Of a stretch of DNA of 64,000 nt, positions 47,757-64,000 are shown piece after piece; positions within the stretch are counted from its first letter, which is position 1, and each line of letters opens with the position of its first letter. The notes beneath the pieces were generated by a model, which did no database searches, was not told the origin of the DNA, and saw only the letters and a list, made by a program, of their open reading frames with translations. A program made the position numbers and the translations under genes. The DNA is from Rhodothermales bacterium (GTDB taxonomy: Bacteria > Bacteroidota > Rhodothermia > Rhodothermales > VXPQ01), in the NCBI GenBank assembly GCA_951812345.1, contig OX638295.1, forward strand, positions 2,414,965 through 2,478,964, written 5' to 3'.

Positions 47757-47982
47757 CACGCCCGTTTGAAAAAAATTGCCGGAATTCACAATACGAATTC
47801 GCGGAACCGGGCATTTTTACGTACGTTAGGAAATAATGCGGGTTTGTTTTCGGGCCGGATTTATGCGAATTGCCACCCCGAAAAACGCATCGAACGCACT
47901 TGAAACCATTGTATGGGCGCCTCAGGCACGGTAATTTTTCCGACACCCTGATACGTATTCCAAACTATCCGGGAGCAGCGAC

Positions 47983-48642: not shown

Positions 48643-48691
48643 GCGCAGCGAGCGGCGGCCTGACGACAAAACGTGCGTGCAGGCAACCGCT

Positions 48692-49390: not shown

Positions 49391-49520
49391 TTCGTTTGGT
49401 TGAAAAGTATCTGAGGCCGTCGGAAAAGATAAAACCGCTCGTCGATCCGGAACACGGCACGATCCAGTGAATATCGAAGATACGAATCTCTAACCGGGCA
49501 CTACGACCCTGACCGCATTT

Positions 49521-50354
49521 ATGGGAAAATTTATTTCGGTTGCGAACCAGAAAGGCGGCGTGGGCAAAACAACGACGGCTATCAATCTTGCTGCCTCGCT
49601 GGCCGCCATGGAGCATTCTGTCCTGCTTGTGGACATTGATCCCCAGGCTAACACCACCTCCGGAACCGGCATACAGGACGGAACACGCGGCCATTCCATC
49701 TACGAGGTGCTTATCGAAAGTATCGATATCCGCACGATCATACAAAAGACGGAGATTGCATCGCTCCATGTCGTGCCGAGCCACATCAACCTTGTCGGCG
49801 CCGAAATCGAAATTGCGGACCTCCCCAGACGGGAATACCGTCTCAAACAGGCCTTCGATGCCATCCGGCAGGACTACGCCTTCATCGTGATCGACTGCCC
49901 GCCTTCTCTCGGCCTGCTCACGGTCAATGCGCTCACTGCGTCCGACTCGGTAGTAATCCCTCTGCAAACCGAATATTTTGCCCTCGAGGGGCTGGGACAA
50001 CTCCTGAATACCATCCGGATCGTCCAGCAGCGCCTCAATCCGACCCTTGAAATAGAGGGGGTGCTGCTGACAATGTTCGACACCCGACTCCGCCTTGCAA
50101 ACCAGGTAGTGAACGAGGTGCGGCAATACTTCGGCGACAAAGTGTTCAAAACGATCGTCCAGCGAAACGTGCGACTTTCCGAAGCGCCCGGTTTTGGAAA
50201 ACCCGTGTTGCTCTACGACGCGGTTTCCACAGGTGCGCGCAACTATATCGCCCTGGCCCGCGAGATTGCCCAAAACAATCCTGTCGCCGCACCGGAAGAA
50301 AACGACGAAAACGTTGCCAGTTCGGATACGCCGTCGGTCGAATACGCACAATAA
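49521..50354 (+). CDS. parA: Chromosome partitioning ATPase ParA/Soj
   Basis: Deviant Walker A NQKGGVGKTTTAINLA; FIVIDCPPSLG. Confidence 0.9.
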   Translation: MGKFISVANQKGGVGKTTTAINLAASLAAMEHSVLLVDIDPQANTTSGTGIQDGTRGHSIYEVLIESIDIRTIIQKTEIASLHVVPSHINLVGAEIEIADLPRREYRLKQAFDAIRQDYAFIVIDCPPSLGLLTVNALTASDSVVIPLQTEYFALEGLGQLLNTIRIVQQRLNPTLEIEGVLLTMFDTRLRLANQVVNEVRQYFGDKVFKTIVQRNVRLSEAPGFGKPVLLYDAVSTGARNYIALAREIAQNNPVAAPEENDENVASSDTPSVEYAQ

Positions 50355-50382
50355 GCCCCCCTCACGTATCCCCTATTACATC

Positions 50383-51282
50383 ATGGCACCACGGAAAGAA
50401 GCGTTGGGACGCGGGCTGAGCGCCATTCTGGAATCGAACGAGGAGCCCCTTGCGCCCGACCGGCCGGCCGAACGGATCCGTCAGATCAGCGAGATCGACA
50501 TTGCTCTGATTCGGCCGAACCCCTTTCAGCCCCGCAAGGATTTCGATGAAGAGACACTAATCGCATTGGCGCATTCGATCGAACAACTCGGGCTTATTCA
50601 GCCCGTCACGGTGCGAACGGGGGGAGACGGTTATGAACTCATCTCCGGAGAACGACGGCTGCGCGCGGCGCGGCGCGCCGGTCTCGAACGCATACCTGCC
50701 TACGTTCGGGAGGTGGATGCGGATAGCATGTTGCAAATGGCTATCGTCGAAAACATCCAGCGAGAGAACCTCAATCCGATCGAGGAAGCGCTTGCCTACC
50801 GGCGCCTGATGGAAGAATGTGAGATGACCCACGAAGATGTTGCGCACAGCGTCGCCAAAAGCCGGTCCGCCGTAACCAACATGCTGCGCCTGCTCCGGCT
50901 GCCGCCGATCATCCAGGCGGGCCTTCGCGACGGGGACGTGTCGGTTGGACATGCCCGCGTCCTGATCAACATAGAGAACGAAAAAACGCAGATAGCGCTC
51001 TTCAAAGCGATCAAGGCGGAGGGGCTGTCCGTACGGGAAATCGAGCGAAGGGTACGGGAAACCCGCCGGGCGGATAGTAGAAAAAACAAAAAAGCGGGCA
51101 GCCCCGAAACGGGCGTACCGAAACGCGACGCCCTGCAACTCGAGCAATACACGGTGCAACTGCGCAATCACCTGGGCACCCGGGTCGGTATCCGGCGCCA
51201 GGGCGATGGCGGCCGGATCGAAATCGATTATTATTCCGGCGATGATCTGGAGCGTCTTCTCGAATTGATAACAGGAAAATAA
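50383..51282 (+). CDS. parB: Chromosome partitioning protein ParB/Spo0J
   Basis: Start MAPRKEALGRGLSAIL; GERRLRAARRAGL; NPIEEALAY. Confidence 0.9.
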   Translation: MAPRKEALGRGLSAILESNEEPLAPDRPAERIRQISEIDIALIRPNPFQPRKDFDEETLIALAHSIEQLGLIQPVTVRTGGDGYELISGERRLRAARRAGLERIPAYVREVDADSMLQMAIVENIQRENLNPIEEALAYRRLMEECEMTHEDVAHSVAKSRSAVTNMLRLLRLPPIIQAGLRDGDVSVGHARVLINIENEKTQIALFKAIKAEGLSVREIERRVRETRRADSRKNKKAGSPETGVPKRDALQLEQYTVQLRNHLGTRVGIRRQGDGGRIEIDYYSGDDLERLLELITGK

Positions 51283-51284
51283 TC

Positions 51285-51950
51285 GTGGATAGCCGGATTG
51301 GTTACGGCGCGGTCGTCCTGATGGCATGCATGGCCGGCTTCCCGGCGACACGCCCCGTAGCGGCACAACCTGATACAACCGTTGCGGCGCATGACCTTGC
51401 CCCCCGCACTGTACTTTGGCGGGCCGCCGTACCCGGCTGGGGCCAACTCCGCAATCGCCAATACGTTAAGGCAGCCGTTGTCTGGGGCGGTCTGGCAGGT
51501 TTTACCGGAGCAATCATCCATGCTAATCGGCGATACCGGACGTATGGCCACGGCTACCTGTGGATTGTCCGGGATATCTCCACGGTTAACGTTCCCGCAA
51601 GCTACGAGCAAGACTACCTGAGCCTGCTCAGCGAACTGGGGGTCTCTCCCGAAGAAGCTGCGTCGGACGCCTTCCAGAACAGACTGTCCGGCCTGTTCCG
51701 CCAGCAACGCGATGCCCTTCGCAGAAATCGCGACATGCTGTATATCGGCGCCGGCGTATTCTACGGGCTTTCGATCCTTGATGCGTACGTCCACGCACAA
51801 TTGCTCGACTTCGATGTCGGCGAAAATCTGGCATTTTCCCTGCAGCCCGCGGGCATCTCGGCCACATGGCGATTCAGGCGCCGGAACACCGCTGCCGATC
51901 CGGCGCAAGGCCCGGGATGCCAAACGAAAAAGAAACCATGCGGATATTAA
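51285..51950 (+). CDS. DUF5683-family protein
   Basis: WRAAVPGWGQLRNRQYVKAAVVWGGLAGF pattern and position immediately after parB, as in Bacteroidota. Confidence 0.6.
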   Translation: MDSRIGYGAVVLMACMAGFPATRPVAAQPDTTVAAHDLAPRTVLWRAAVPGWGQLRNRQYVKAAVVWGGLAGFTGAIIHANRRYRTYGHGYLWIVRDISTVNVPASYEQDYLSLLSELGVSPEEAASDAFQNRLSGLFRQQRDALRRNRDMLYIGAGVFYGLSILDAYVHAQLLDFDVGENLAFSLQPAGISATWRFRRRNTAADPAQGPGCQTKKKPCGY

Positions 51951-52083
51951 TATCGAAAATTGCTTATTTTACCCCGTTAATGCGTTAACGCCACGTTGTG
52001 GGGACATTTTCCACGCATTCCGTCTGCTTGCTTCAACAGGGGCCCGTTCCCTGGCCATACCGCCCGAGACGAATCACGACAAT

Positions 52084-53433
52084 ATGACGACGCCCCTTGA
52101 TTCCCAGTCAGAGCGCCATGACGGTGCGTCAGTGGATACCTGTGCGGCGAAAGAACTGACACTGTTCGAAAAATGCCACCGATTTTTTGACGAATCGACA
52201 GATTATGGACGGGCCAAAAAAGCCGGCCTGTACCCGTACTTCCGCATGATCGAACGGAACGAGGGCACCCGCGCCATGCTGAACGGGCGCGAGGTCATTA
52301 TGGCCGGCTCGAATAATTACCTGGGACTCACGTCCGATCTCCGCGTACAGGAAGCCGCCGCCAGGGCCATCAAGAAGTACGGCACCGGGTGCACCGGGAG
52401 CCGGTTCCTGAATGGCACGCTCGATCTGCACATCCAATTGGAAGAGCGGCTTGCCACTTTCATGAAAGCGCCGGGCTGTGTGGTGTTTTCAACAGGGTAT
52501 ATGGCGAATGAGGGGGTGATTCAGGCTCTTGCCTGCAAGGGGGATTTCATCTTCTCCGACAAGGATAACCATGCCTCCATCACCGCGGGTACGCGCGCCA
52601 GCATGGGGGAAACGATCCGTTTTCGGCACAACGACATGGATCACCTGCGGAGATTGCTTGCCAAAACCTCCAGAACCCATCCGGAAGCAGGCAAGTTGAT
52701 CGTTACGGACGGGGTGTTCTCCATGAGCGGCGTCATTGCAAAGGTGCCGGAACTGGTTGAACTCGCCGAAGAATTCGGAGCAGCGCTATTGCTTGACGAC
52801 GCGCATGCCTGCGGGGTCATTGGACCGGGCGGACGCGGATCGGCAGCGCATTTCGGCCTCAGCAAACGGGTGCCCCTGACCACGGGGACGTTCTCGAAGA
52901 GCTTCGCCTCAATAGGGGGATTCTGTGTGGCGACCAGGGACATCGTCGAGTTTGTTCGCCATCGCAGTTCCACGCACATGTTCAGCGCCTCCATGCCGCC
53001 GCCCAGTGTGGCTACAGTGCTTAAGTGCCTGGACATCCTGGAGGACGAACCCGAACGCCTCCAGCGCCTCTGGGAAATCTCGGACTACATGCGCAACGGC
53101 TTCCGGAATTTCGGATTCAATATCTGGACCAGCCAGTCCCCGGTCATTCCGGTCGTTATCGGCGACATGCTGACCTGTTTCAAGTTCTGGCACGACCTGC
53201 TCGAAGAAGGCGTCTTCGCCAATGCAGTCGCCCCTCCCGCCGTGCCGCAGGGCCAATCCCTCATGCGCACATCCTTCATGGCGACGCACTCAAACGACGA
53301 ACTGGATTTTATCCTTGAAAAATTCACCCGCGTAGGAATAAAACACGGTATCGTCAACAGAAATGGCACGGCAACTTCGGAAGAAGACGAAAAATACCTA
53401 ACGGAGGCGGTACAGGCTGACGCCCAGCCATAA
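52084..53433 (+). CDS. alpha-Oxoamine synthase family PLP enzyme (BioF/Kbl/serine palmitoyltransferase-like)
   Basis: Start MTTPLDSQ; SNNYLGL, DDAHACG, PLP-lysine context GTFSKSFASIGG. Confidence 0.75.
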   Translation: MTTPLDSQSERHDGASVDTCAAKELTLFEKCHRFFDESTDYGRAKKAGLYPYFRMIERNEGTRAMLNGREVIMAGSNNYLGLTSDLRVQEAAARAIKKYGTGCTGSRFLNGTLDLHIQLEERLATFMKAPGCVVFSTGYMANEGVIQALACKGDFIFSDKDNHASITAGTRASMGETIRFRHNDMDHLRRLLAKTSRTHPEAGKLIVTDGVFSMSGVIAKVPELVELAEEFGAALLLDDAHACGVIGPGGRGSAAHFGLSKRVPLTTGTFSKSFASIGGFCVATRDIVEFVRHRSSTHMFSASMPPPSVATVLKCLDILEDEPERLQRLWEISDYMRNGFRNFGFNIWTSQSPVIPVVIGDMLTCFKFWHDLLEEGVFANAVAPPAVPQGQSLMRTSFMATHSNDELDFILEKFTRVGIKHGIVNRNGTATSEEDEKYLTEAVQADAQP

Positions 53434-53474
53434 AGCCATGCGGCCATACCCGTGCCTGCCATCTCTTTGCTCGC

Positions 53475-54617
53475 ATGACTACACGCTCCGTGACCATTCG
53501 TCCCGTCCGCTCCCGGAGCGATCTCAAGGCATTCATTGATTTTCCGTACCGCCTGTACTGCGACTATCCTGCCTGGGTACCCCTGCTCCGACAGGATATT
53601 CGCCACACGCTGCATCCGAAGAAGAATGCTTTCTTCGAGCACGGCGCTATTTATCCGCTTCTTGCCCGCGACGCCTCTGGAACCGTCACAGGACGCATTG
53701 CCGCCATCGTAAACGGCATGCATCTCAAGACCTACGGGGATAACCTGGGCTATTTCGGGTTCTTCGAAACGATCGAGGATTATGCGGTAGCGGAGGCGCT
53801 CCTCGACGCCGCTTCCGCTCGCCTCCGGGAAGAGGGCCTGACGGGCGCGCGTGGACCCACGAATCCCTCTATCAACGATACCTGCGGCCTGCTGGTGAAT
53901 GGGTTCGATAAGGAGCCGGGGGTTCTCATGCCGTATAACCCCCCGTACTACGAGTCCTTTCTGGAGCGGTACGGCTTCGAGCGCGTGATGACCATGTGGG
54001 GGTATTATCTCCACAAGAAGTACCTGAAGATCGCCAAACTTGAACGCGGCGTCGAGATCGTCAAAAAGCGCAATCCGGGTGTTACGCTACGCACGCTGGA
54101 CATGAAGCGATTTGACGAAGAAGTGCAGACTATCCTCGATATATACAACGATGCCTGGGAAAATAACTGGGGGCATGTTCCGATGACAGAGGGGGAAATT
54201 GTCCAGCTTGGCCGACAGATGAAGCAGATCATCGATCCAGGCATCATCTATTTTTTGGAGGACAACGGAGTACCCGTGGGATTCTCCGTATCGTTGCCCA
54301 ACATCAACCAGTTGCTCCGGCATGTACGCAATGGGCGGCTGTTTCCGTTCGGCGTGTTCCAGTTGCTGATCCGGGAAAAACTCGGCGGAATCACAGAAAT
54401 TCGCACCCCCATCCTCGGCGTCCGGAAAAAATATCACGGACGCGGCCTGGATGCTATCATGAACCTTGCAGCGATCCAGGAGGGCCAGAAGCGCGGCTAC
54501 GATGCGGGCGAATTCAGCTGGGTTCTCGACTCCAATGTGCGCCAGCGGAATGCGCTCGTTTCTTTCGGCAGCGTCATCGACAAGGAATATGCGATGATGG
54601 AGAAGGCCTTGACGTAG
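53475..54617 (+). CDS. GNAT-like acyl/acetyltransferase family protein
   Basis: 380 aa; FIDFPYRLYCDYPAWVPLL N-terminus typical of a large uncharacterised GNAT-related family; YHGRGLDA. Confidence 0.5.
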   Translation: MTTRSVTIRPVRSRSDLKAFIDFPYRLYCDYPAWVPLLRQDIRHTLHPKKNAFFEHGAIYPLLARDASGTVTGRIAAIVNGMHLKTYGDNLGYFGFFETIEDYAVAEALLDAASARLREEGLTGARGPTNPSINDTCGLLVNGFDKEPGVLMPYNPPYYESFLERYGFERVMTMWGYYLHKKYLKIAKLERGVEIVKKRNPGVTLRTLDMKRFDEEVQTILDIYNDAWENNWGHVPMTEGEIVQLGRQMKQIIDPGIIYFLEDNGVPVGFSVSLPNINQLLRHVRNGRLFPFGVFQLLIREKLGGITEIRTPILGVRKKYHGRGLDAIMNLAAIQEGQKRGYDAGEFSWVLDSNVRQRNALVSFGSVIDKEYAMMEKALT

Positions 54618-54683
54618 GGCGACCCTGCAGATCGGACGGGATGGCCGTACCGTTCCGGCGCCTGCGTACGCGATCTCCACAGA

Positions 54684-54703
54684 TAAGGGATACTCTGATT
54701 AAG
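54684..54703 (+). repeat. Copy of dispersed motif
   Basis: TAAGGGATACTCTGATTAAG; ends 10 nt before the DUF1801 ATG. Confidence 0.5.
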
Positions 54704-54712
54704 CAGCAAGAC

Positions 54713-55102
54713 ATGTCCAAAGCCAGAACCGGAACGTTCGACGACTTGCTCCAAATCACGGAGGAGCCCCTGCGTCCCATTGCGCAAGCGCTGCGAGAGC
54801 TTGTTTTCGAGATCGACCCCGGCGCCTGCGAGGTGGTCCGCCTTGGCTACCGCTCTGCAACCTATGGCGTAGGATCAAGGCAAATGATTGACGGCTATGT
54901 CTACATTCTGCCTTATGAAAGATGGGTGAACCTCGGTTTCTATCAGGGCGCCAGTCTGACGGACCCGGAGGCCTTGCTTGAGGGAACCGGCGCAAAGATG
55001 CGCCATGTGAAGATGCATTCCCCGGAGGATGTGCATCGTTCGGCAATTCGAGGGCTAATTGAAAGCGCTCTCGCCGAGCGAAGGACGGCGCCCGGTCGCT
55101 GA
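54713..55102 (+). CDS. DUF1801 (YdhG-like) protein
   Basis: Start MSKARTGTFDD; EPLRPIAQALRELV...YRSATYGV...WVNLGFYQG pattern. Confidence 0.65.
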   Translation: MSKARTGTFDDLLQITEEPLRPIAQALRELVFEIDPGACEVVRLGYRSATYGVGSRQMIDGYVYILPYERWVNLGFYQGASLTDPEALLEGTGAKMRHVKMHSPEDVHRSAIRGLIESALAERRTAPGR

Positions 55103-55112
55103 TCTTTGCGGA

Positions 55113-55129
55113 TTTAATCAGAGTATTCC
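55113..55129 (-). repeat. Copy of dispersed motif (forward form on the minus strand)
   Basis: Plus strand TTTAATCAGAGTATTCC; 11 nt after the DUF1801 stop. Confidence 0.5.
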
Positions 55130-55141
55130 AGGGCGGAGCGG

Positions 55142-55165
55142 AGCGTATTGCTACGCTGTTTTTTT
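55142..55165 (+). terminator. Intrinsic terminator after the DUF1801 gene
   Basis: AGCGTA-TTGC-TACGCT stem-loop followed by G plus T7. Confidence 0.5.
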
Positions 55166-55189
55166 GTAGAATTTCCGGCGAATGAGTAG

Positions 55190-55279
55190 AAAAGGTATAA
55201 AAAAGGAGTAAAAAAGGCACCTTAATGGGATAAAAGGCCCGGATAGCATACAAAGCGAAAACGCCGGATCCCGGAAAAA
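55190..55279 (+). other. Phased A-tract array (predicted intrinsically bent DNA)
   Basis: A4-A6 runs starting at 55190, 55199, 55210, 55232, 55252, 55258, 55275; ends in AAAACGCCGG. Confidence 0.5.
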
Positions 55280-55414
55280 CGTTATGGTTAGTACCCTCTA
55301 TTTCTTGCCATGGCAGCCTTGGAAAAGTTGCATTTGACCGTGGCAGGCGCTACAATAAAGAATGACCGATTTCGTTGTAAACCAGACCCCGACCGTATAC
55401 AAGCGGAGGCGAAC

Positions 55415-55945
55415 ATGCACAGAGAGCGATCTATAGCGCAAAGGTTAACGGCCCTGACAGCAGCAGTAGTCATACTTGGGGGGTGGTGCCCCGAAGCGCT
55501 GGGGCAGATACAACCATTGGAAGGCGCACCTCTGGCGGTGCTGCAGCAAGGGCATGTAGAACAGGAACTGGTGCCGTACCGTCCGGCGATGGCCCAGGAT
55601 AGCCCACTTCCCGCATCGTCCGTCTTTGCGGAGGCCACAACGACAGAAATAGAGATGCTATACGAGAAAGACCCACAGCGGGCGGAATTTAACTACCGCG
55701 GTCGGGTTATGGTAATCACGGGCATTGTGTACAGGGTAGAGGGCGATTATATCAGATTCGCCAGCTACGATGGAGCCCGGTCCAATGCTGTCCACGCAAA
55801 GGGCGTAAAGTGCTACTTTTTCGAGCGTCAGAGATCGCTTGTAAATAACCTCAAAAGGGGAGACAGGATCGCTATGGAAGGGACTGTTTTGGGGTATGGC
55901 CCGCTCCGGAGAAACGTCGAGATAGCCCCCTGCACCATATTGTGA
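55415..55945 (+). CDS. Secreted OB-fold protein (tRNA_anti-like family)
   Basis: Start MHRERSIAQRLTALTAAVVILGG preceded by GGAGG; YRGRVMVITGIVYRVEGDYIRF...GVKCYF...GDRIAMEGTV pattern. Confidence 0.55.
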   Translation: MHRERSIAQRLTALTAAVVILGGWCPEALGQIQPLEGAPLAVLQQGHVEQELVPYRPAMAQDSPLPASSVFAEATTTEIEMLYEKDPQRAEFNYRGRVMVITGIVYRVEGDYIRFASYDGARSNAVHAKGVKCYFFERQRSLVNNLKRGDRIAMEGTVLGYGPLRRNVEIAPCTIL

Positions 55946-56019
55946 TCGGCTGTCGGGCCTGGGGCTATCCGATATAAGCTTCCCAAAAGGGCCAAATTGA
56001 GCTGAAAACGGGGAATTAT

Positions 56020-56064
56020 GGGGATTTATATACCAAACAAAGTTGCCTTACGGGTCTATGTATC
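56020..56064 (+). repeat. Left inverted repeat (45 nt)
   Basis: GGGGATTTATATACCAAACAAAGTTGCCTTACGGGTCTATGTATC; identical to the reverse complement of 59321..59361 except for a 4-nt CAAA duplication. Confidence 0.9.
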
Positions 56065-56271
56065 CCCTGGAAAGGCTATATTGGACGGACCATCGCCAGC
56101 GGAGCGCCTACCTAAAGGTCGGGTCGCCTGCTGAATACAAGAGCCATCGAAAAGTGCGGAGCTGATCACTTCGCGCTGGTGAATAGGCAGGACATCCAGC
56201 AGCTCTGGCTGGCGGTGGTACATGACTCGGCGCCCTCTTTGCGCCCATATCACCAAAACTTTCCCGGAGCT

Positions 56272-56685
56272 ATGCAGCGGCTTATACCTCTCTTTCTCGT
56301 CTTCCTCTTCGCTTGCGAAGGACCTGTCGGCCCCGAAGGTCCCGCGGGGGCCGCTGGCCCGGAGGGTCCCGCTGGCCCGGAGGGGGCCGCAGCCGAGGTA
56401 ATCATAAGAACGGCTTTCGGAGTCCTCGACGAAAGGGGCAGAGCCGCTAATAGCTTCAGTAACTTCTGGATAGACGAAGGTGTTCTGCAATGCTGGCAGC
56501 GGAGCAACTCCCAGGACGTATGGTATCTCATCACTTCCGATGCCATCCTTATCGATACGGATACGGGAGAAGAGATCTTTCTTGTGACCTCCTGCGTTGC
56601 GGAGGAGACGAGTAGCGGGATGGCTGTTGCCGTAAAGGGGTTTCCAGGTTGGGAATACCTCATCGTCGCCATAAGCGGGCGATGA
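56272..56685 (+). CDS. Lipoprotein with a short collagen-like Gly-X-Y tract
   Basis: MQRLIPLFLVFLFAC lipobox, then 8 triplets GPVGPEGPAGAAGPEGPAGPEGAA, then a ~95-aa unknown domain. Confidence 0.55.
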   Translation: MQRLIPLFLVFLFACEGPVGPEGPAGAAGPEGPAGPEGAAAEVIIRTAFGVLDERGRAANSFSNFWIDEGVLQCWQRSNSQDVWYLITSDAILIDTDTGEEIFLVTSCVAEETSSGMAVAVKGFPGWEYLIVAISGR

Positions 56686-58670
56686 CGATGGCCGTGATGC
56701 GTGTGCCGGCGCCTTCGCTCTCCGGTATACGGGCGCTGCGTTTCGCTGGCTTCCTCGAGGCCGACGGACAGACACTGCAGTTCAACCCGCTCGATATGGG
56801 ATACATGGGCGGTGCGGACCTCGACATCGACAGCGCCTATGTCATGCAGGAGATGCCGGACGACTATATGCTCGCGCTTGAAAAATATCGCTACGAGTGG
56901 CACGAGAACGAGGACAGCTCAAAGGGTTTCCGCGAGGTGAAGGAAGACAAGCGCTTCATAAAAGACGAGGCCGTCGAGAATACGACTATAAGCTCTGTCT
57001 ACGACACGAACGAGCTCCTGAAGACGGGCATTAATGCGTACCGGGGCAAGACACTCCTCTCCGCCGGCATCTCATACGGCAACAGGTTCGTGCCCTGGTA
57101 CACCAACGTGGTTTCGAAGCTCGAGACGTTCGGCGACGCGACGCCGGAAAGAAAGCCGGGTCGCGAGGCGACGTGGATCAACGAGGCCGAGGGCATCTAC
57201 TGGACGGCGAAGGTGCGCAAGGATGCGATGAGCCGCAAGGACGGGCTGCCCTACCTTGTGCGTGAGCTTGTCAACTACGCTGCCGACAGCGCGGACTACG
57301 GCCGCCTGATCGACGTGCAAGCTTTTCGCCGCCTCATTATGGAGCGTTTCTTCGAGGATGTCACCGTATGGAGAGGCAAGAGAAATATTACCTCGGAAAC
57401 CGACATGTAGGGGTTCAACTATCCTTTCGGCGATCCGAAGTTCGAAGCGCTGCGCGACGTTATCAGCGCCACGAAGGACCGTGTGCCGGTTACGAAGGAG
57501 ACCGTCGTAAGAGGCCGCAGACACGTCGAGCGCGAGTACAAGAACGACATGACGCTCAAGAATACGGCCGCATGGATAATGCGAAAACTGCGGTCCGTCA
57601 GCGAACTGCGGCATCCCGGCCTCGAGCTACTTCGTTACCTCGAGGAGCTCGACGTCGCCGTACAGGAGTTCAGGGAAGTCAAGTTCGAGGGGCTGCCTTT
57701 CACGTCCGGGGAGCTCGTCGACTATCTGCCCTTCCATGTGAAGATGGGCGAGATACATAACATGGACATGCACGATCGCGAGGTAGGCACGGGTACGGCC
57801 GCTGCTGCCGGTCATCGCAATCATCCCGTCTTTACGAAAGACCCGACAAACCAGGATGACTTCAACGCTCGCGTGGCTCGCTTCAGGGTGAATACGTCGA
57901 CGTACAAGATACGCGATCGTACGGGCGATGCACGCCTGCTCGAAAGAGCGAAGATGAAGAAGATAGACTTCTGGCGACGCGAGTATGCGAACGATCCGGA
58001 GTATTTTCGCAACCTCGAGGAGGACCACCGTATAGGTCGCTGGTGACAGGACGCGGCGGACCGCGCCAGCCAGTACATTGCAGTCGTCGAGGCCATACGC
58101 GCGGAGGATGGCGCCGCCGACACCGACTATGTACGTTGGCATGAGCGTAATCTTGGCGAGGTGCCGGACCGCCCGCTCACCGTCGACGAGCGCCGGCAGG
58201 CTCTCTATGCGGAGATCAACCGGCAGGCCGAGGAGCTGCGTGTACTCGACACGATACGCGACCGTATCCTTGCGCTCGATCCGGATACGCATGACAAGGT
58301 GGAAAAGCTGCGGCGCGAGAAGGAAGCTTATGAAGAGGGTAAGCCGAAAAGCGCGAAGAGGGCCGGCCTTGTCGCCGAGAAGATAGAAGCGCTCATAGGC
58401 GACGCGAGGCCTGACAACGAGCAGATACGATTTCGAATCCGGAAGTCCGACGAGATATTCGACAGCGAGGTCAGCCGCAAGTGGCGTCTGCGCGCCGCCG
58501 AACTGAAGGAAGCGAACGCATCGTTCGGCGACTACTTGCGCGGCTTCGAGCGTTTCGAGGAAGAAACGATGCAGGCTTTTGAGGAGCCTCTCCTTGCGGA
58601 CTACCGGCAGGCCTACTATCTCGATTCGCTTTATCCGCAGTCGATCAGCCCGCAGGAGTTTACGCGAAGC
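56682..58670 (+). pseudogene. Large unknown ORF, ATGA-coupled to the lipoprotein gene, with in-frame TAG (57408) and TGA (58044), 3'-truncated at the IS remnant
   Basis: ORF-track entries 56649..57410, 57483..58046 and 58161..58796 share one frame; manual reading shows the frame is open across both gaps apart from the two stop codons. Confidence 0.6.
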
Positions 58671-59222
58671 ACGTGGGCCAGAATACGACCGGTCCTTCGA
58701 TCGCGGATACCGACGACAGGGACCTTCTTCGTACAGCCCTGTCTCTTTCTGTATTTCTTGTTGTCGTGCTTGTTCTTCTCAGTACCTCCGATATAGGTCT
58801 CGTCGACCTCCACGGGCCCGGTGAACACGATTGCATCGCTGCCGAAGAACTCGCGGATCCGATGAAGCAGGAACCAGGCGGTCTTCTGCGTCATGCCGAG
58901 CTCGCGCGCTATGCGCAGGCTCGAGACGCCCTTCGGGTTCGTCGCGACCATGTACACGGTTACGACCCATTTTCTGAGCGACACCTTGCTCGATTGCATC
59001 ACTGTGCCTTTGCGTACGGAGAAGTACGATCGGCAGCTTTGGCAGCGATACGGCATCGAGCCGTGACGGGGCGTTTCCTAATAGTGCTGCGACTTGCATG
59101 AAGGACACACCGGGGCCATCCGGCCAGCGTATATCCTCGAGCCATTGCCGGGCGGCTTCCTCGTTCGGAAACTTCTCCATTATGTCGAAGAGCGTCAGCT
59201 CTTTACTCTCGTGCTTTTGCAT
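58631..59222 (-). pseudogene. IS1595-family (ISXO2-like) transposase, frameshifted and C-terminally truncated
   Basis: MQKHESKELTLFDIMEKFPNEEAARQWLEDIRWPDG (frame 1), then YRCQSCRSYFSVRKGTVMQSSKVSLRKWVVTVYM...VEVDETYIGGTEKNKH (frame 2); the DDE C-terminal half is missing. Confidence 0.75.
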
Positions 59223-59320
59223 TTTTCCCTCCGGAACAAGTGATTTTTCCCTCTGAGCCCATAGAGGGAATTACAGAGTCCGGAGAAAAAAATAAAGATG
59301 TGCATTCGCACACTGTACAA

Positions 59321-59361
59321 GATACATAGACCCGTAAGGCAACTTTGGTATATAAATCCCC
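59321..59361 (-). repeat. Right inverted repeat (41 nt)
   Basis: GATACATAGACCCGTAAGGCAACTTTGGTATATAAATCCCC. Confidence 0.9.
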
Positions 59362-59459
59362 AAAAATCGCCAATAAATGCCCATTTTAGGCTAAAAAAAG
59401 CACAAAATGAATGAAAAATGACCAAAAATTGGGAAAAATAACCCAAAAATAACAAAAAA
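59362..59459 (+). other. Phased A-tract array (predicted strongly bent DNA)
   Basis: A4-A7 runs starting at 59362, 59393, 59404, 59414, 59424, 59434, 59445, 59454 (spacing 9-11 bp in the last seven); ends in AAAACGCCGG like the array at 55190..55279. Confidence 0.6.
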
Positions 59460-59488
59460 CGCCGGCTGTAATAACAACCGGCGTTTTT
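59458..59488. terminator. Bidirectional intrinsic-terminator-like hairpin
   Basis: AACGCCGG-12 nt loop-CCGGCGTT, A-run before and T-run after, so a U-tract follows the stem on either strand. Confidence 0.55.
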
Positions 59489-59998
59489 CCTGCCTGGATG
59501 TGGGGTAAACCCCACAAATATACATGTTCACTGGTATTCCTATCCGCGACCGGCCTCCCGCATTTCCGACGCATCGCCGAAGCGACATTCCGAAAACGGT
59601 ATTCGGGAGGCCTGACTCCCGCGTCGCCGCTCACCGACCGAAGTCCGTGCCGACGCCGACGTGGTGACGCATGCCCTGCTATCGGTTTCCCGATTGCTGG
59701 ACAGCTGAACCGCATGGGCAGACGGTTCAAGCGCCACAGACCTTCTGGTTACCCACGCTTCCTGTATCCATACACCCTCCACAGCCAACTCCCCCCGGCC
59801 TCCTTCGCCACGCTTACAGACTCCACGTCGGCATTTCTGCCGCCGCTTCACCGTGTGCTTGCGCTCCGGAAAGCCGGCTTTGTCAACCGCTTCATCAAGC
59901 CTATGCATACCCCGCACCGAAGTGAGGGGGACGGACGCACGGGCGCCTCATGCAGCCAGAGTACTCAGTCGCTTCAAGGAACGGTGCCCGAAAGCACT
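59489..59998 (-). ncRNA. Candidate ~0.5-kb structured RNA of unknown family
   Basis: Bounded by promoter 60005..60033 and terminator 59458..59488. Minus-strand hairpins capped by UUCG (plus coords 59984..59998, 59910..59930, 59632..59649, 59573..59586) and GAAA (59681..59694). Further helices at 59500..59515, 59707..59728 and 59552..59612. No protein-like ORF. Confidence 0.45.
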
Positions 59999-60004
59999 GA
60001 ATGC

Positions 60005-60033
60005 ATTATAAGCGCCCGTATCAGCCGCGTCAA
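60005..60033 (-). promoter_or_regulatory. Near-consensus sigma70-type promoter (minus strand)
   Basis: -35 TTGACG (60033..60028), 17-nt spacer, -10 TATAAT (60010..60005); A/T-rich block (GAAATAAATTTTGTT) just upstream of the -35. Confidence 0.55.
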
Positions 60034-60187
60034 GACCCTGAACAAAATTTATTTCACAAGTTGTTAACAAAGTGTACACCGTTTGAAAAAGGGGTGTGTA
60101 TAAAGCTGCCGAAAACAAGCATCTGTGGCGCCAGTGCGGTTTTCCCGTCATGTACGCCTCCACCTGTAGTCAGGGCCCAATTCTTCT

Positions 60188-60224
60188 GAAAACGAAAAGC
60201 CCGACCTGACGTGCAGGCCGGGCT
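60188..60224 (-). terminator. Intrinsic terminator (minus strand)
   Basis: Minus-strand RNA AGCCCGGCC-UGCACGUCA-GGUCGGGCU (9 bp including one G-U that would be an A-C mismatch on the plus strand), followed by UUUUCGUUUUC. Confidence 0.6.
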
Positions 60225-60386
60225 CCCGGTGCCCACTAAAACGCGACTGATACCCCGCCGGTCCCGTTAACAGGAGGAAATAACCGGACCGGATGAGGCC
60301 TCCAGCGCATGAGGTAAGGGTAAGATAACGGATTGCAATGAATAAAGCAAACAATAACGGATATTTTTTGAAATACTGGAAAGATA
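60225..60386 (-). ncRNA. Possible ~200-nt small RNA, or the 3' UTR of the rhomboid gene
   Basis: Putative promoter TTACAT-N16-TATATA (60420..60393) and terminator at 60188..60224; contains an 11/12-bp hairpin (60258..60292). Confidence 0.25.
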
Positions 60387-60416
60387 CCCCTCTATATAGT
60401 CTCAGAAATAACGGAT
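60325..60416 (+). repeat. Three direct copies of ATAACGGAT
   Basis: Copies at 60325..60333, 60354..60362 and 60408..60416 in an AT-rich stretch; the third lies in the spacer of the putative small-RNA promoter. Confidence 0.5.
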
Positions 60417-60527
60417 GTAATTCACAGTACCCAAGCCGTAAGGCACAACATGGAGTCGGGTATATTCAGGGAACGAGCCGGAGGACGACCGCAAACATGC
60501 AGCAGCACAGCGCACGTTTACGTTGCA

Positions 60528-60549
60528 TAAAGGATACTCTGATTACGTC
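60528..60549 (+). repeat. Copy of dispersed motif
   Basis: TAAAGGATACTCTGATTACGTC; shares 16 nt (ATACTCTGATTACGTC) with the copy at 19863..19882; 30 nt beyond the rhomboid stop. Confidence 0.5.
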
Positions 60550-60579
60550 CGCAAAGCTCAGAGGCTGAAAGGGGCAATA

Positions 60580-61212
60580 CTACCCCCCGATCATTCCCAA
60601 CTGCCGCAGAAATACTTCCACGGCCCGCGGCTCCAGCAAAATTGTGAGCATCAGCCCGCCTAAAGCGCCGCCGAGATGCGCCTCGTGCGCAATGCCGCCC
60701 CCTGCACTGCCATGCGAACGCCGCATCGCATACATCGAGACCACGACATACCCTACCGCAAAGAGCGCTGCGGGAATACCTATCGGTACAAAGAAAATGT
60801 GGATAGGCTGGAGCGGCGCAAACAGACAGTAGCCGAACAGCACGCCGCTGATTGCACCGGAAGCCCCTACCGCCGCATACGTGACGGAATGCCTGTGCAA
60901 CGCCAGCGAAAGTCCGTGCGCCGCCAGTTCGGACCCGAAGTACAGCACCAGAAAAGAACCCGGCCCCAGTGCATATTCCATCGGTGGGCCGAAGAAGTAC
61001 AGCGTAATCATATTGAACAGCAGATGCGCCCCGCTCACATGCACGAACCCTGCCGTGATCAGCCGAGCGTACTGCCGATGGCGCAGCACCAGATACGGTT
61101 TGAACGCCAGTCGATCTATGAACGAACGATCAAAGAATAACGCATAGCCGCTCGTCAACAGGATGACGACAAGCAGAAACAGCGTAATCGGCGAAGCGGA
61201 AAGAGCGGACAT
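60580..61212 (-). CDS. Rhomboid-family intramembrane serine protease
   Basis: Six TM helices; GASGAISGVLFG catalytic Ser motif and AHLGGALGG His motif. Confidence 0.85.
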   Translation of the reverse strand: MSALSASPITLFLLVVILLTSGYALFFDRSFIDRLAFKPYLVLRHRQYARLITAGFVHVSGAHLLFNMITLYFFGPPMEYALGPGSFLVLYFGSELAAHGLSLALHRHSVTYAAVGASGAISGVLFGYCLFAPLQPIHIFFVPIGIPAALFAVGYVVVSMYAMRRSHGSAGGGIAHEAHLGGALGGLMLTILLEPRAVEVFLRQLGMIGG

Positions 61213-61217
61213 GCGTG

Positions 61218-61925
61218 CTACGCCGGTACCGCCGCGATGTGGTCCATGATGGATTCGAACAGATACCTTCCGTCGGCGCTCCCAAGAACCCCTTCCGCAC
61301 AGCGGTCGGGATGCGGCATCATGCCCAGCACATTGCGCCCCTCGTTCACGATGCCCGCAATGTGGCGGGCCGACCCGTTCGGGTTCGCCTCCGGCGCAAG
61401 TTGCCCCGCTTCGTCACAATACCGGAACACGATCCGACCCTCGCCTTCAAGCCGGTCCAGCACTTCGTCCGAGGCGAAATAATTTCCCTCGCCATGCGAA
61501 ATCGGAATGCGAACAACCTGCCCCTGCTCCAAACGGGTCGTATACGGCGTACGGGCATTTTCGACCAGCAAGTGAACCTGCTTGCATACGAAACGAAGCG
61601 AAGCGTTTCGCATCAGAGCGCCCGGCAACAAGCCTATCTCGCAAAGCATCTGGAATCCGTTGCATATACCGAACACCAGCCCGCCGCCTGCGGCAAAGCG
61701 CACCACATCCTGCATAACTGGCGAAAATCGGGCAATGGCTCCGGAGCGCAGGTAATCTCCGTACGAAAAGCCGCCGGGCAAAATGACCACATCCACATCA
61801 CCTACACTGCTTTCCTTGTGCCAGATAAAGCGAACCTCTTGTCCAAACACATGCTTCGCGGCATGATAGGCATCATGATCGCAGTTGGACCCCGGAAAAA
61901 CGATAACGCCGAATCGAACGGCCAT
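61218..61925 (-). CDS. purQ: Phosphoribosylformylglycinamidine synthase, glutaminase subunit
   Basis: [23 protein letters not shown] (catalytic Cys), MMPHPDR. Confidence 0.9.
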
Positions 61926-62137
61926 GGAATGTGCAGAAAAGGTTTTGTAAAGAATGACCCGCGAGCGTCACAGCAAGTCGCACCGGGGAACGAATATCCG
62001 GCAAGGCGTTCGAATATCTGCCGAATACAGGCGCAGGAAAACATCCGTGCCGAACGGGGACGCCGTGTAGGGCTACAATATACTAAAGGATACGCGCCGC
62101 ACGTAGCGCCTTCCACGCAAACCAGCAAGAACCGCTT

Positions 62138-63109
62138 ATGAATTATCGTCGTTTCGGACGCCTCGACTGGAAAGTCAGCGACATCGGATACGGGATGTGG
62201 GGCATGGGAGAATGGTCGGATTCCGATGATAATGAATCCATGAACTCCATGAACCGGGCCGTTGCATTGGGATGCACCTTCTTTGACACGGCGCTGGCCT
62301 ATGGAGAAGGTCACAGCGAAAAGTTACTGGCCAGGCTGGTAGCGGCACACCCGGATAAAACCTTGTACACCGCTTCCAAGGTGCCGCCGAAGAATCGCCA
62401 GTGGCCCAGTCGGCGGGGATACACACTGGACGAAGTGTTTCCGCCCGACTATGTGAAGGCGTCTATCGAGAAAAGCCTCGAAAATACGGGCCTTGCCCAT
62501 ATTGACCTCATGCAACTGCATGTATGGGAAGACGACTGGCTCGACGACGACCGGTGGATCGGCACGCTGGAGAATTTCCGGCGACAGGGCCTGATCCGGG
62601 GTATTGGTATCAGCCTGAACCGGTGGGAACCCTGGAACGGGGTGAAAGCTGTCCGGAGTGGCCTGGTAGATGCCGTGCAGGTCATCTACAACATCTTCGA
62701 TCAGGCGCCCGAAGACGAATTATTCGCGGCCTGTATGGAAATGGATGTCGCTGTTATTGCCCGGGTCCCGTTCGACGAGGGCGGATTGACGGGAAACCTC
62801 GCCAAAGACGCCACCTGGCCGGAAGGCGACTGGCGCAACATCTACTTCGGTCCGGAGAATCTCGCCCGGACCGTCGAGCGCGCCGACGCGTTGAAAAGAA
62901 TACTGCCCGAAGGCATGAATCTGCCGGAAATGGCATTGCGGTTCATCCTATCGCACGAGGCCGTATCGACCATTATCCCCGGCATGAGAAAACTCCGCCA
63001 CGTTGAGGCCAATATCGCCGCGAGCGACAAGGGTGCGCTGGACGCCGATCTCCTTGACGCACTCCAGTCGCACCGCTGGGACCGGGAGCCCACAGACTGG
63101 TCACATTAA
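62138..63109 (+). CDS. Aldo/keto reductase
   Basis: GYGMWGMG, FFDTALAYGEGHSE, IDLMQLH, IIPGMRKLRHVEANI. Confidence 0.85.
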   Translation: MNYRRFGRLDWKVSDIGYGMWGMGEWSDSDDNESMNSMNRAVALGCTFFDTALAYGEGHSEKLLARLVAAHPDKTLYTASKVPPKNRQWPSRRGYTLDEVFPPDYVKASIEKSLENTGLAHIDLMQLHVWEDDWLDDDRWIGTLENFRRQGLIRGIGISLNRWEPWNGVKAVRSGLVDAVQVIYNIFDQAPEDELFAACMEMDVAVIARVPFDEGGLTGNLAKDATWPEGDWRNIYFGPENLARTVERADALKRILPEGMNLPEMALRFILSHEAVSTIIPGMRKLRHVEANIAASDKGALDADLLDALQSHRWDREPTDWSH

Positions 63110-63131
63110 CGCCTGCCATGTACGCCGCAAC

Positions 63132-64000
63132 ATGATTCCGCGGGAACTGTTCAGGAAAATTCGGCGGATCGAAATCCGCACGAAAGGGCTTGTCAATAAT
63201 TTCTTCGGAGGCGAATACCACTCGGCCTTCAAGGGGCTGGGTATCGAATTTTCGGAAGTGCGCCCGTACCAGGTGGGAGACGATATCCGTTCGATCGACT
63301 GGAACGTCTCTGCGCGAACCGGAGAGACCTATGTGAAGGTGTTCGAGGAGGAACGCGAGCAAACGCTCATGCTGGTAGTGGACGTATCCGGGTCGGAGGA
63401 TTTTGGATCGCAAGCGCAGTTCAAACGAGAGGGTGCAGCAGAGATCTGTGCGATCATCGGGTTCAGCGCCATTTCCAACAACGACAAGGTGGGGCTCCTG
63501 CTGACCTCGGACCGGGTCGAACTCTTCGTGCCCCCGAAAAAGGGGCGCCGGCATGTACTACGCCTGCTCCGGGACCTGTTTGCCCACGAACCGGAATCCC
63601 GGAAAACCGACCTTGCAGCAGCTCTGAATTATCTGCCCCGTATGCTCAATCGCCGCTCCATCGTGCTCGTCATCAGCGATTTTATGGACGAGGGGTTCGA
63701 GAAGGCGTTGCGGGTTGTGGCCCGGCGTCACGACACCATCGGCGTGCGGCTCGAGGATCCTCGCGAACAGACGTTGCCGCGGATGGGACTGGTCGAGTTG
63801 ACCGATGCTGAAACCGGCGAAACGGTCATCGTGGACACGAGCGACCGGCGGGTACGCGAAGCATTCGCCGCCTCCGCAAGGACGCGCCGGGCGCAACTCG
63901 ACGACCTGTTCCGGCGCATCGGGATGGATCATGTGACCATCCGCATGGACGAAGGGTATGTGGAACCCCTGATCCGGTTCTTCCGCCAACGAAACAGGAG
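63132..64000 (+). CDS. DUF58 (vWA-like, MoxR-associated) protein, runs off window end
   Basis: Manual translation from ATG 63132: MIPRELFRKIRRIEIRTKGLVNNFFGGEYHSAFKGLGIEFSEVRPYQVGDDIRSIDWNVSART...; open to position 64000; not in ORF track. Confidence 0.75.
   Translation, partial: MIPRELFRKIRRIEIRTKGLVNNFFGGEYHSAFKGLGIEFSEVRPYQVGDDIRSIDWNVSARTGETYVKVFEEEREQTLMLVVDVSGSEDFGSQAQFKREGAAEICAIIGFSAISNNDKVGLLLTSDRVELFVPPKKGRRHVLRLLRDLFAHEPESRKTDLAAALNYLPRMLNRRSIVLVISDFMDEGFEKALRVVARRHDTIGVRLEDPREQTLPRMGLVELTDAETGETVIVDTSDRRVREAFAASARTRRAQLDDLFRRIGMDHVTIRMDEGYVEPLIRFFRQRNR

Follow-up and report, generated by a model that had tools for sequence, protein, structure and literature searches.

A probable dead insertion sequence of the IS1595 family, uncatalogued and rearranged inside, in a sponge-associated Rhodothermales bacterium

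Background

Insertion sequences of the IS1595 family generate 8-bp target duplications and encode a transposase with a zinc finger and a DDE domain (PMC8101967), and a passage in PMC11891212, citing Siguier et al. 2009, describes passenger-carrying members of this family under the name "transporter IS". The family, including transporter IS such as ISNha5 (ISfinder; Siguier, Gagnevin & Chandler 2009), resembles the unit reported here in the pairing of an N-terminal Zn_ribbon_IS1595 with DDE_Tnp_IS1595 and in terminal repeats that start with GG. This 3.3-kb unit occupies positions 56020-59361 (3,342 nt) of the window, by which we mean the whole 64,000-nt stretch of DNA analysed, is bounded at both ends by inverted repeats, and lies on the chromosome of an uncultured sponge-associated Rhodothermales bacterium. 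Its close relatives with the same ends share further traits of the family, namely passenger genes and AT-rich target duplications of 8 bp. The unit itself, in contrast, lacks two thirds of the catalytic domain as well as a target duplication, is present as a single copy, and has a "cargo" that is largely a gene fragment.

A second system of comparison is ISWpi1 of Wolbachia, in which inversions have arisen by recombination between 23-bp terminal repeats (Ling & Cordaux 2010, PMC3004938). In this way identical ends and an inverted interior are known to arise without a dedicated recombinase. However, the ISWpi1 inversion was proven by strain comparison and a diagnostic mismatch between the ends, whereas for our unit, with one orientation and no canonical copy, the same route may only be considered.

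Results and discussion

Ends and transposase remnant

On the whole, the data are best read as one copy, dead and rearranged in its interior, of an IS1595-family insertion sequence that is uncatalogued, with a probability of about 0.8. The word "uncatalogued" rests on the genome and metagenome collections searched, ISfinder not being among them, in which the 41-nt repeat has no match and no transposase exceeds 64% identity; the inner 22 nt of the repeat have no match in 185,579 species genomes or in the JGI metagenomes. The features of the unit are collected in Table 1.

Table 1. Coordinates of the features of the unit and its borders in the window
Feature	Position	Strand	Remark
Native left flank GGGGAATTAT	56010..56019	.	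9/10 positions match the IS terminus GGGGATTTAT; orthologues at insertion-free sister sites
Left terminal inverted repeat	56020..56064	+	45 nt; CAAA 4-nt tandem duplication relative to the right repeat
Conserved ~100-120-nt element upstream of the collagen-like lipoprotein module	56077..56200	+	not IS-derived; nhmmer and alignments
Intact lipoprotein gene, 137 aa	56272..56685	+	lipobox LFAC; short collagen-like Gly-X-Y run
2.0-kb internal fragment of a phage-like giant gene	56670..58674	+	two in-frame stop codons
Transposase remnant, ~185-190 codons	58667..59222	-	Zn_ribbon_IS1595 and the first third of DDE_Tnp_IS1595 only
IS leader, right repeat to transposase start	59223..59320	-	holds the GGAGGG ribosome-binding site
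Right terminal inverted repeat	59321..59361	-	41 nt; end adjoining the transposase start (conventional IRL)
Native right flank AAAAATCGCC	59362..59371	.	reverse complement matches the IS terminus 8/10

The two repeats are reverse complements of each other, the sole difference being the tandem duplication in ACCAAACAAAGTT. They begin with GGGG and so have the GG start of IS1595 terminal repeats, and the outer 24 nt of the left one fit a family of IS and MITE ends, GGGGAyTTATATACmAAAGTTrCC; for a 24-nt piece of the repeat, shuffles of the window give a chance expectation of zero matches. The transposase starts at an ATG at 59222, 98 nt inside the right repeat. Near 59110-59117, in the run GGCCCCGG, its frame is shifted by 1 nt, a TAG follows at 59078-59080, and its homology stops at about codon 190 (58664-58667), where the 3' part is gone at the junction with the phage-like fragment. 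When the protein is read through frameshift and TAG, Zn_ribbon_IS1595 (PF12760) scores 38.9 bits against a cut-off of 25.4 over profile positions 1-44 of 46, and DDE_Tnp_IS1595 (PF12762) scores 40 bits, above its cut-off, over positions 3-57 of 153 only, so that a complete catalytic domain with its DDE triad is absent. Homologous transposases carry both domains, the best intact one being 64% identical, and around the closest of them (metagenome contigs L017 and L018) no convincing ends of their own are found. The transposase is a remnant, not a working IS1595 member.

These results bear out what an earlier note on this DNA had described, that is, near-identical inverted repeats with a CAAA duplication, a transposase start about 100 bp from the right repeat behind GGAGGG, a frameshifted and truncated gene, and a lipoprotein gene about 210 bp from the left repeat (we place its ATG at 56272, 208 nt inside). 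The same note had taken the unit for an IS1595-type element bounded by inverted repeats, with a dead transposase, to which the zinc-ribbon and partial DDE scores, the GGGG ends, and the combined frameshift, TAG and loss of the 3' part all conform. A partial third match to the repeat, also pointed out there (60436-60445), is at chance level, since about 3.9 ten-letter matches are expected in 64 kb and 2 are seen.

Captured interior

What remains of the IS is the two ends and the first ~190 transposase codons only, and the other interior is 2.6 kb of unrelated DNA, comprising a gene for a collagen-like lipoprotein, which has an upstream element of its own, and, joined to it, a random internal piece of a phage-like giant gene. 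On contig L022, the counterpart of this piece takes in residues 408-1047 of P0121, a protein of 1055 aa, and the first ~32 codons of the gene that follows; the piece is absent from 40 relatives and has no match in IMG/VR or among GenBank phages. Its long plus-strand frame is interrupted by TAG at 57408-57410 and TGA at 58044-58046, so that the two nonsense codons noticed before are real, while the large passenger ORF is not a decayed gene of the element, being a foreign phage-like fragment cut at both ends. Recoding of the frame (TGA as W, or TAG) was rejected, since the 2 kb contain a single TAG and a single TGA, P0121 as the homologue is free of stops under the standard code, and the TGA aligns with a TGG tryptophan codon.

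The lipoprotein gene takes its last 3 codons and stop from the adjoining phage-like fragment, and it ends in ...IVAISGR as against ...IVAIVEE in the homologues of G005 and G006. Its upstream element also precedes homologous operons in G005 (L019), G006 (L020), L017 and L117, with a further copy in the same genome at 1742187-1742288. The element has no Rfam match, and a 76-100-nt structured RNA was rejected here, as there is almost no covariation among five sequences. Scans of the unit and flanks for tRNA, tmRNA and Rfam families gave nothing. Conserved sequence of the lipoprotein module begins by about 56077-56080, and IS sequence at the left end amounts to 45 nt only, which does not agree with a composite transposon of two IS copies around a cargo.

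Relatives and mobility

One relative with the same 24-nt end is a 2,764-bp element of the sister species G006 (locus L023, 1081-3844), which encodes an intact 313-aa transposase, carries two passenger ORFs and is flanked by the 8-bp duplication AATCAAGA. In addition, 345-bp MITEs with the same 24-nt end (L026 and L018; MITE sizes range from 340 to 345 bp) are flanked by 8-bp duplications, and the duplications of the same-end relatives read AATCAAGA, ATAATTCG and GAATATCG/GGATATCG. The G006 element and the MITEs are like the unit in the 24-nt terminus, the transposase clade and an association with genes for small secreted or membrane proteins. They are unlike it in having repeats of 24-27 nt, 8-bp duplications and, in L023, an intact transposase; moreover, the relatives' transposases are only ~51% identical to that of the unit, and their passenger genes are unrelated to the lipoprotein. 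The canonical ends, natural repeat length and original cargo of the IS are accordingly estimates from relatives with 51-64% identical transposases, no intact copy having been found in the collections searched.

From these comparisons we suggest that the ancestral element may have been similar to the 2.76-kb cargo-carrying relative in a sister species, and that the part from the middle of the transposase to near the far end was probably replaced by illegitimate recombination. Such a replacement would have killed the transposase, and a few point lesions would have piled up afterwards. As regards a transporter IS, whose passenger genes move with it, non-IS DNA including one intact gene does lie between the ends of the unit, but this DNA is mostly a gene fragment, the transposase is dead, and there is no second copy to show joint movement. 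The unit does not belong to the MITEs or other non-autonomous elements, given its 3,342 bp, the transposase remnant inside and its single copy.

The empty sister sites point to one insertion, the 2.82-Mb genome holds one copy, and none is known elsewhere; since insertion the unit has apparently been immobile, and it is fixed in every sampled strain. A different account is that of a non-autonomous cargo cassette, in which the chimera would have formed elsewhere and come here in one piece when a related IS1595 transposase acted in trans on its intact ends; it could then also move again. The insertion limits coincide exactly with the repeat ends, relatives with cargo exist, and same-end MITEs without a transposase gene carry 8-bp duplications, which indicates that trans-mobilisation occurs in the family. 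We nevertheless regard the account as rather unlikely, because the target duplication is missing, the copy is the only one, and the only active-looking IS1595 of the same genome (1,237 bp, 8-bp duplications, six full copies and one truncated) is a poor helper. The latter was rejected for this role, as its 23-nt ends GGGAATTACCGGTTTAACTTGAC agree with those of the unit over no more than the first ~8 nt and the transposases are only 51% identical. As a transposon, the dead copy is now inert, and contributes at most one possibly functional lipoprotein gene.

Age of the unit and identity of its ends

Perfect ends beside decayed genes had suggested to the earlier note three explanations: very recent decay, gene conversion between the repeats, or selection on the repeats themselves, for example as recombination or inversion sites. 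Under a neutral model, a divergence of 1-2% gives 1.2-2.3 expected nonsense codons in 2.56 kb, and the probability of no substitution in the 82 nt of repeat is 0.44-0.19. The lasting identity of the repeats is thus probably due to their small size, 82 nt in all, and to the youth of the unit, at ~1-2% neutral divergence. Being a very small mutational target, perfect repeats beside broken genes do not by themselves indicate selection, and the contrast requires no special explanation. Of the three, recent decay is the one backed by the data; selection is not, as the neutral model suffices for intact repeats.

Youth alone does not account for the length of the identity, which reaches 17 nt further inward than the ~25-27 nt seen in the two related elements whose ends can both be compared. 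These extra 17 nt may be native to the element, or may have come about by gene conversion from end to end or by duplication of one end. Along the second line, homologous recombination between the terminal repeats may have flipped the interior one or more times and given one end the sequence of the other, hence the 41-nt identity. The extra 17 nt would fit, as would the direction of the lipoprotein module, which is opposite to that of the passenger genes that follow the transposase gene in L023 and L017, and the 23-bp repeats of ISWpi1 set a precedent. We hold this to be unlikely, however, as there is no intact copy of this IS to show that the ends ever differed, the assemblies of four runs have a single orientation, and a natively long repeat fits the same data.

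Insertion site and missing target duplication

The genomes of sister species align up to 56019/56020 and resume at 59361/59362, so that the limits of the insertion are those of the repeats, to the nucleotide, and the unit is absent from the site in those sister species whose flanks can be aligned. In place of the 3,342 nt, G011 has 26 nt and G010 ~39 nt. The insertion postdates the split from the sister species and was made into an intergenic spacer, where a large non-coding RNA gene has its terminator ~95 nt upstream of the unit. The spacer varies among relatives, in which it is often interrupted. Between conserved flanks, G005 has a segment of 451 nt and G006 one of 714 nt, in neither of which an IS-end motif is found; in run X7, a relative carries ~0.9 kb within the spacer, and ~2 kb are inserted in its adjoining RNA-gene region (60105-60189). 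A loose end ...ATATAAGTCCCCC of run X7, a sponge metagenome, was rejected as an IS end, being the orthologue of the native motif TATAAGCTTCCC common to all relatives.

An 8-bp target-site duplication is absent, as had been noticed before: the flanks are GGAATTAT and AAAAATCG, and a one-base shift of the boundary is of no help. The simplest account would be a normal insertion at AAAAATCG, which is plausible as the original 8-bp target, followed by a slippage deletion between GGGGATTT of the IS terminus and a native GGGGATTT ~14-45 nt upstream. Some sister species still carry the native upstream GGGGATTT, and similar decamers are present at the empty sites of G010 and G005; the decamer is missing in G011 and G002, and the sister-species sequences under this explanation differ among themselves. 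A more elaborate possibility is a fusion, in which two same-end elements would have inserted a few tens of nt apart in a hotspot spacer, and a deletion would have taken the inner ends, the spacer between and the inner duplication copies. This would account at once for the chimeric interior, for the lack of a duplication and for the loss of 26-40 nt of spacer, and it suits a spacer as often interrupted as that of G005, G006 and the X7 relative. It seems improbable to us all the same, as more events are needed than one insertion and a short slippage deletion, the two-element intermediate is seen in no strain, and the genome holds no further copies of this IS.

Strains, orientation and meaning

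In runs X1, X2 and X3, contigs cover the whole unit with both flanks in the same place and orientation and with the same lesions, differing by 2-3 SNPs, and in X4 pieces cover the unit without differences. No inverted orientation is seen in these assembled contigs of four runs, which may hide rare variants. The genes nearby (GNAT-like, DUF1801, OB-fold, rhomboid, PurQ and aldo-keto reductase) include no recombinase or invertase. The special readings proposed earlier, including the repeats as inversion or recombination sites, find no support, as far as assembled contigs can tell, with neither heterogeneity of orientation nor further copies.

It is very unlikely, in our judgement, that the unit is more than a fossil, with 41-nt ends kept identical by recurrent recombination or conversion, a cassette that can still flip or be moved in trans by related IS1595 transposases, and a lineage that with its MITEs shuttles secreted and lipoprotein genes among sponge-symbiont Rhodothermales. 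Hardly any credence is left for a programmed switch, in which the repeats would be selected as recombinase sites and a 3.3-kb flip would control the lipoprotein or the neighbouring RNA gene, as it has only the perfect 41-nt repeats and one intact internal gene in its favour, and has against it the lack of a nearby recombinase, the lipoprotein gene's own conserved upstream region, repeats that are standard IS-family ends, one orientation in every assembly, and the absence of the unit from sister species.

Apart from annotation, the importance of this dead copy is small. It adds to the record a lineage of IS1595 that is uncatalogued and that, in one genus of sponge-associated Rhodothermales, includes a form with cargo as well as MITEs of 345 bp, and it is an instance of a dead IS serving as a container for captured DNA, here a lipoprotein gene and a phage-like gene fragment. 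If the lipoprotein is expressed in the host, a symbiont would here have gained a surface protein in association with an IS, as a minor example of such gain. In runs X5 and X6 the depth is highest over 56250-57300, which we rejected as evidence of transcription. Loose ends in these runs often start with GATC, contigs stop at GATC sites (57312, 57919), and the organism's own variable 16S regions are not over-represented, so the two runs behave like Hi-C DNA libraries, in which uneven depth is expected. In run X2, the lipoprotein gene occurs in a variant form that is 18 nt longer in frame.

Structure of the unit

Our analysis shows that the unit bounded by the two inverted repeats is a new IS1595-family element, both dead and chimeric; its features are collected in the table. 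The 41-bp inverted repeats described in the earlier note are indeed near-perfect, the sole difference between the arms being a tandem CAAA duplication in the left one, and for a 24-nt piece of the repeat zero chance matches are expected in shuffled windows. The partial third match reported for the repeat, at 60436-60445, is at chance level, as about 3.9 ten-letter matches to any portion of the repeat are expected in 64 kb and 2 are seen. The frameshifted and truncated IS1595-type transposase with its GGAGGG, placed about 100 bp from the right repeat, is confirmed; read through its lesions, it clears the Pfam thresholds for Zn_ribbon_IS1595 and for a partial DDE_Tnp_IS1595 match that covers the first third of the domain (positions 3-57 of the 153 in the profile), and stops at about codon 190. 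On the whole, IS-derived sequence in the unit comprises only the two ends, the leader of 98 nt and the transposase gene up to about codon 190, and the transposase remnant abuts a phage-like fragment of opposite orientation at 58664-58674.

Features of the unit, its surroundings and the second IS1595 element of the genome
Feature	Position	Strand	Remark
Left inverted repeat	56020-56064		reverse complement of right arm over 41 nt
Conserved ~100-120-nt element	56077-56200		TATATT box at its start; upstream of lipoprotein gene
Lipoprotein start ATG	56272	plus	208 nt inside left arm
Phage-like fragment	56670-~58674	plus	collinear with P0121 residues 408-1047 and first ~32 codons of next gene
Stop codon TAG	57408-57410	plus	long frame
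Stop codon TGA	58044-58046	plus	long frame
TAG in transposase	59078-59080	minus	transposase lesion
Frameshift, 1 nt, in GGCCCCGG run	near 59110-59117	minus	transposase lesion
Transposase start ATG	59222	minus	98 nt inside right arm, GGAGGG ahead
Right inverted repeat	59321-59361		partner of left arm
Conserved non-coding region	59458-60033	minus	terminator hairpin 59455-59488
Second IS1595 element, six full copies	C1 591xxx, 1489xxx, 1695xxx, 1748xxx, 2546xxx, 2550xxx		
Second IS1595 element, one truncated copy	C1 2547835-2548410		

The large passenger ORF does carry the two nonsense codons noted earlier, but both of its ends fall within genes, so that it is a randomly cut piece rather than a passenger gene in decay. 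Its sole homologue among 5.8 billion proteins, in a search considering only proteins of 0.55-1.75 times the query length, is the 1055-aa protein P0121, and no homologue is found in 40 relatives or in phage collections. As the contig of P0121 also has genes for a holin and for a collagen/fn3 tail-fibre-like protein, a phage origin of the fragment is likely rather than proven. Where the lipoprotein stop codon is overlapped (ATGA), the methionine codons reused are ones that P0121 has too. In the only homologous contig (L022 13100-13200, 2x coverage), P0121 and the next gene of 1054 aa overlap out of frame, and the window copy reads straight across the junction matching this overlap; they may represent a single giant gene, over 2,100 codons long, that an assembly indel has divided.

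Relatives sharing the ends

The outer 24 nt of the arms, GGGGAyTTATATACmAAAGTTrCC, are found again in sister species. Among these relatives, an element of 2,764 bp in the G006 genome (C1:1128580-1131343, locus L023) has the same ends, an 8-bp duplication AATCAAGA, an intact transposase of 313 aa, and ORFs for a membrane protein (200 aa) and a secreted protein (203 aa). The same ends bound MITEs of 340-345 bp (L026 1015-1359, L024, L025 and L018 937-1276), some 345-bp copies being flanked by 8-bp duplications and two copies being interrupted by IS3- and IS256-type elements; the G006 element is uncatalogued. The secreted-protein passenger of the G006 element has a homologue in L017, in the ORF downstream of the closest homologous transposase; the clade is thus an IS lineage that carries cargo. 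Elsewhere in the own genome, a solo end of the 24-nt family lies beside small secreted-protein ORFs. All this fits descriptions of the IS1595 family, with 8-bp duplications, a zinc finger and a DDE domain (PMC8101967), and with passenger-carrying members, for which PMC11891212 cites Siguier et al. 2009.

The own genome has a second IS1595 element of 1,237 bp with 23-nt ends GGGAATTACCGGTTTAACTTGAC, which looks active; its copies are 98.6-100% identical and have AT-rich 8-bp duplications (ATCACTAA, CTATCTTT, CTTTTTTG, ATTAAATA). It is unlikely to be a helper for the unit, as its ends differ and its transposase shares only 51% identity.

Insertion and age

Sister-species alignments follow the left flank to window 56019/56020 and continue from 59361/59362; since they break exactly at the repeat ends, the unit is an insertion bounded by these ends. 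The empty sites measure 26 nt in G011 and about 39 nt in G010, against 3,342 nt here. The unit is present once in its genome (2.82 Mb, 58.5% G+C, single contig), of which the closest named relatives are the uncultured Rhodothermales MAGs OZ244993.1 and OX638293.1, and no match to the repeat's inner 22 nt occurs in 185,579 species genomes or JGI metagenomes. Contigs of three sequencing runs (X1, X2, X3) span the whole unit with its flanks, and pieces from X4, which has a second host label, cover the unit with zero differences. Site, orientation and lesions are identical across the four runs; the variation amounts to 2-3 substitutions plus an in-frame insertion of 18 nt within the collagen-like repeat. 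We conclude that the insertion post-dates speciation and was fixed before the sampled strains split. Host labels of the runs containing the locus are coded; a sponge metagenome contains a more distantly related version of it, and one of these runs comes from the same study as a seawater metagenome.

The contrast between perfect ends and broken genes is weaker than it appears, with a single indel across the 82 nt of repeats, against four point lesions across an interior of about 2.6 kb. At 1-2% divergence, a neutral model expects 1.2-2.3 nonsense codons in 2.56 kb and leaves the repeats without substitution with a probability of 0.44-0.19. Furthermore, the phage-like fragment has stayed in its original frame over 2 kb; in it there are two stop codons but zero frameshifts, which argues for a young unit. 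Given the few lesions, these expectations and the preserved frame, very recent decay, one of the options proposed earlier, is sufficient; the main lesson is that terminal repeats, being short, outlive genes without selection. Arm identity extends 17 nt further inward than in two related elements with both ends comparable (about 25-27 nt shared). The extra 17 nt may be native to the IS species, or may come from duplication of one end or from end-to-end gene conversion like that shown for ISWpi1 (PMC3004938). Selection on the repeats, or their use as inversion or recombination sites, is unsupported, as no assembly has a second orientation at the level of contigs, where rare variants would be hidden, no neighbour is a recombinase gene, the lipoprotein gene has its own upstream region, and the repeats are ordinary IS ends.

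The missing target duplication

No 8-bp target-site duplication is present, as observed before, the flanks GGAATTAT and AAAAATCG being different. The flanking decamers (56010-56019 and 59362-59371) are similar to the IS terminus GGGGATTTAT: the left one agrees with it at 9 of 10 positions and the right one, when reverse-complemented, at 8 of 10, with a joint chance of about 2e-8 for these positions. Both flanks are native, as seen from orthologous sequence in sister species; the empty sites read ...ATTATATGGGGATTTTTGTGCAAAAATCG in G010 and GGGGGGATTATGGGTATTAT... in G005. With roughly even odds, the element would have inserted normally at the AT-rich target AAAAATCG, and slippage between the native GGGGATTT and the IS terminus, identical to it in sequence, would then have deleted one duplication copy and the intervening 14-45 nt. 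Alternatively, two neighbouring elements may have fused; in relatives the spacer is variable and often interrupted. The terminus-like flanks may reflect a preference of the IS for targets resembling its own ends. The G010 site is a small palindrome, GGGGATTTTT-GTGC-AAAAATCG.

The lipoprotein module

The inward-pointing lipoprotein gene lies about 210 bp from the left repeat, as reported, and is intact, encoding 137 aa with a short Gly-X-Y run. Its family is small (about 8 homologues), with members in variable islands beside HEPN/SIR2 genes or an integrase. The last three codons depart from the family ending ...IVAIVEE because of a junction at ~56669. The conserved element upstream is found again in the own genome (1742187-1742288) and in L019 3855-3983, L020 2097-2224, L017 4661-4789 and L117 4265-4377, preceding operons of collagen-like lipoproteins or secreted proteins in several Rhodothermales (including G005 and G006) and in metagenome contigs. 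No IS ends surround it in G005, G006, L017 or L117; it has no Rfam match, and covariation among five sequences is almost nil, so it may be either a promoter region or an RNA leader.

Within the unit, strain differences cluster in the collagen-like repeat of this gene. The insertion in X2 (window 56367) adds two Gly-X-Y triplets, and in X2 and X3 (window 56367/56386) an Ala39-to-Pro change makes the Gly-Pro-X run longer. As to expression or usefulness of the gene, the in-frame repeat-length variant of X2 is only suggestive, and survival of a 137-codon frame is expected by chance at the age of the unit. A depth peak over the gene in runs X5 and X6 was rejected as expression, since both runs, examined over window 46000-64000 and L119, behave like Hi-C DNA libraries, with GATC-initiated chimeric loose ends, contig breaks at GATC sites and no enrichment of the organism's own variable 16S regions; their uneven depth is unusable as expression evidence anywhere in this genome.

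Neighbouring features

An abundant MITE-like repeat with the terminal sequence GGATACTCTGAT(T/C)AAGTCCGCAAAGCTCAGAGGCTGAGAGGGGT occurs at window 54683-55129 and 60527-60561 and genome-wide, its 14-mer having 279 matches at up to one mismatch, many of them arranged as inverted pairs with a spacing of about 253 bp. The inverted motif pair at 55099-55126 and 60534-60561, which gives the impression of framing a 5.4-kb segment, is explained by ends of this repeat. The conserved non-coding region, with its terminator about 95 nt from the IS lying downstream, matches no Rfam family, yet stretches of 40-75 nt in it are 77-92% identical to sequence from other families of the order. In a relative from sponge metagenome X7, an insertion of about 2 kb interrupts 60105-60189.
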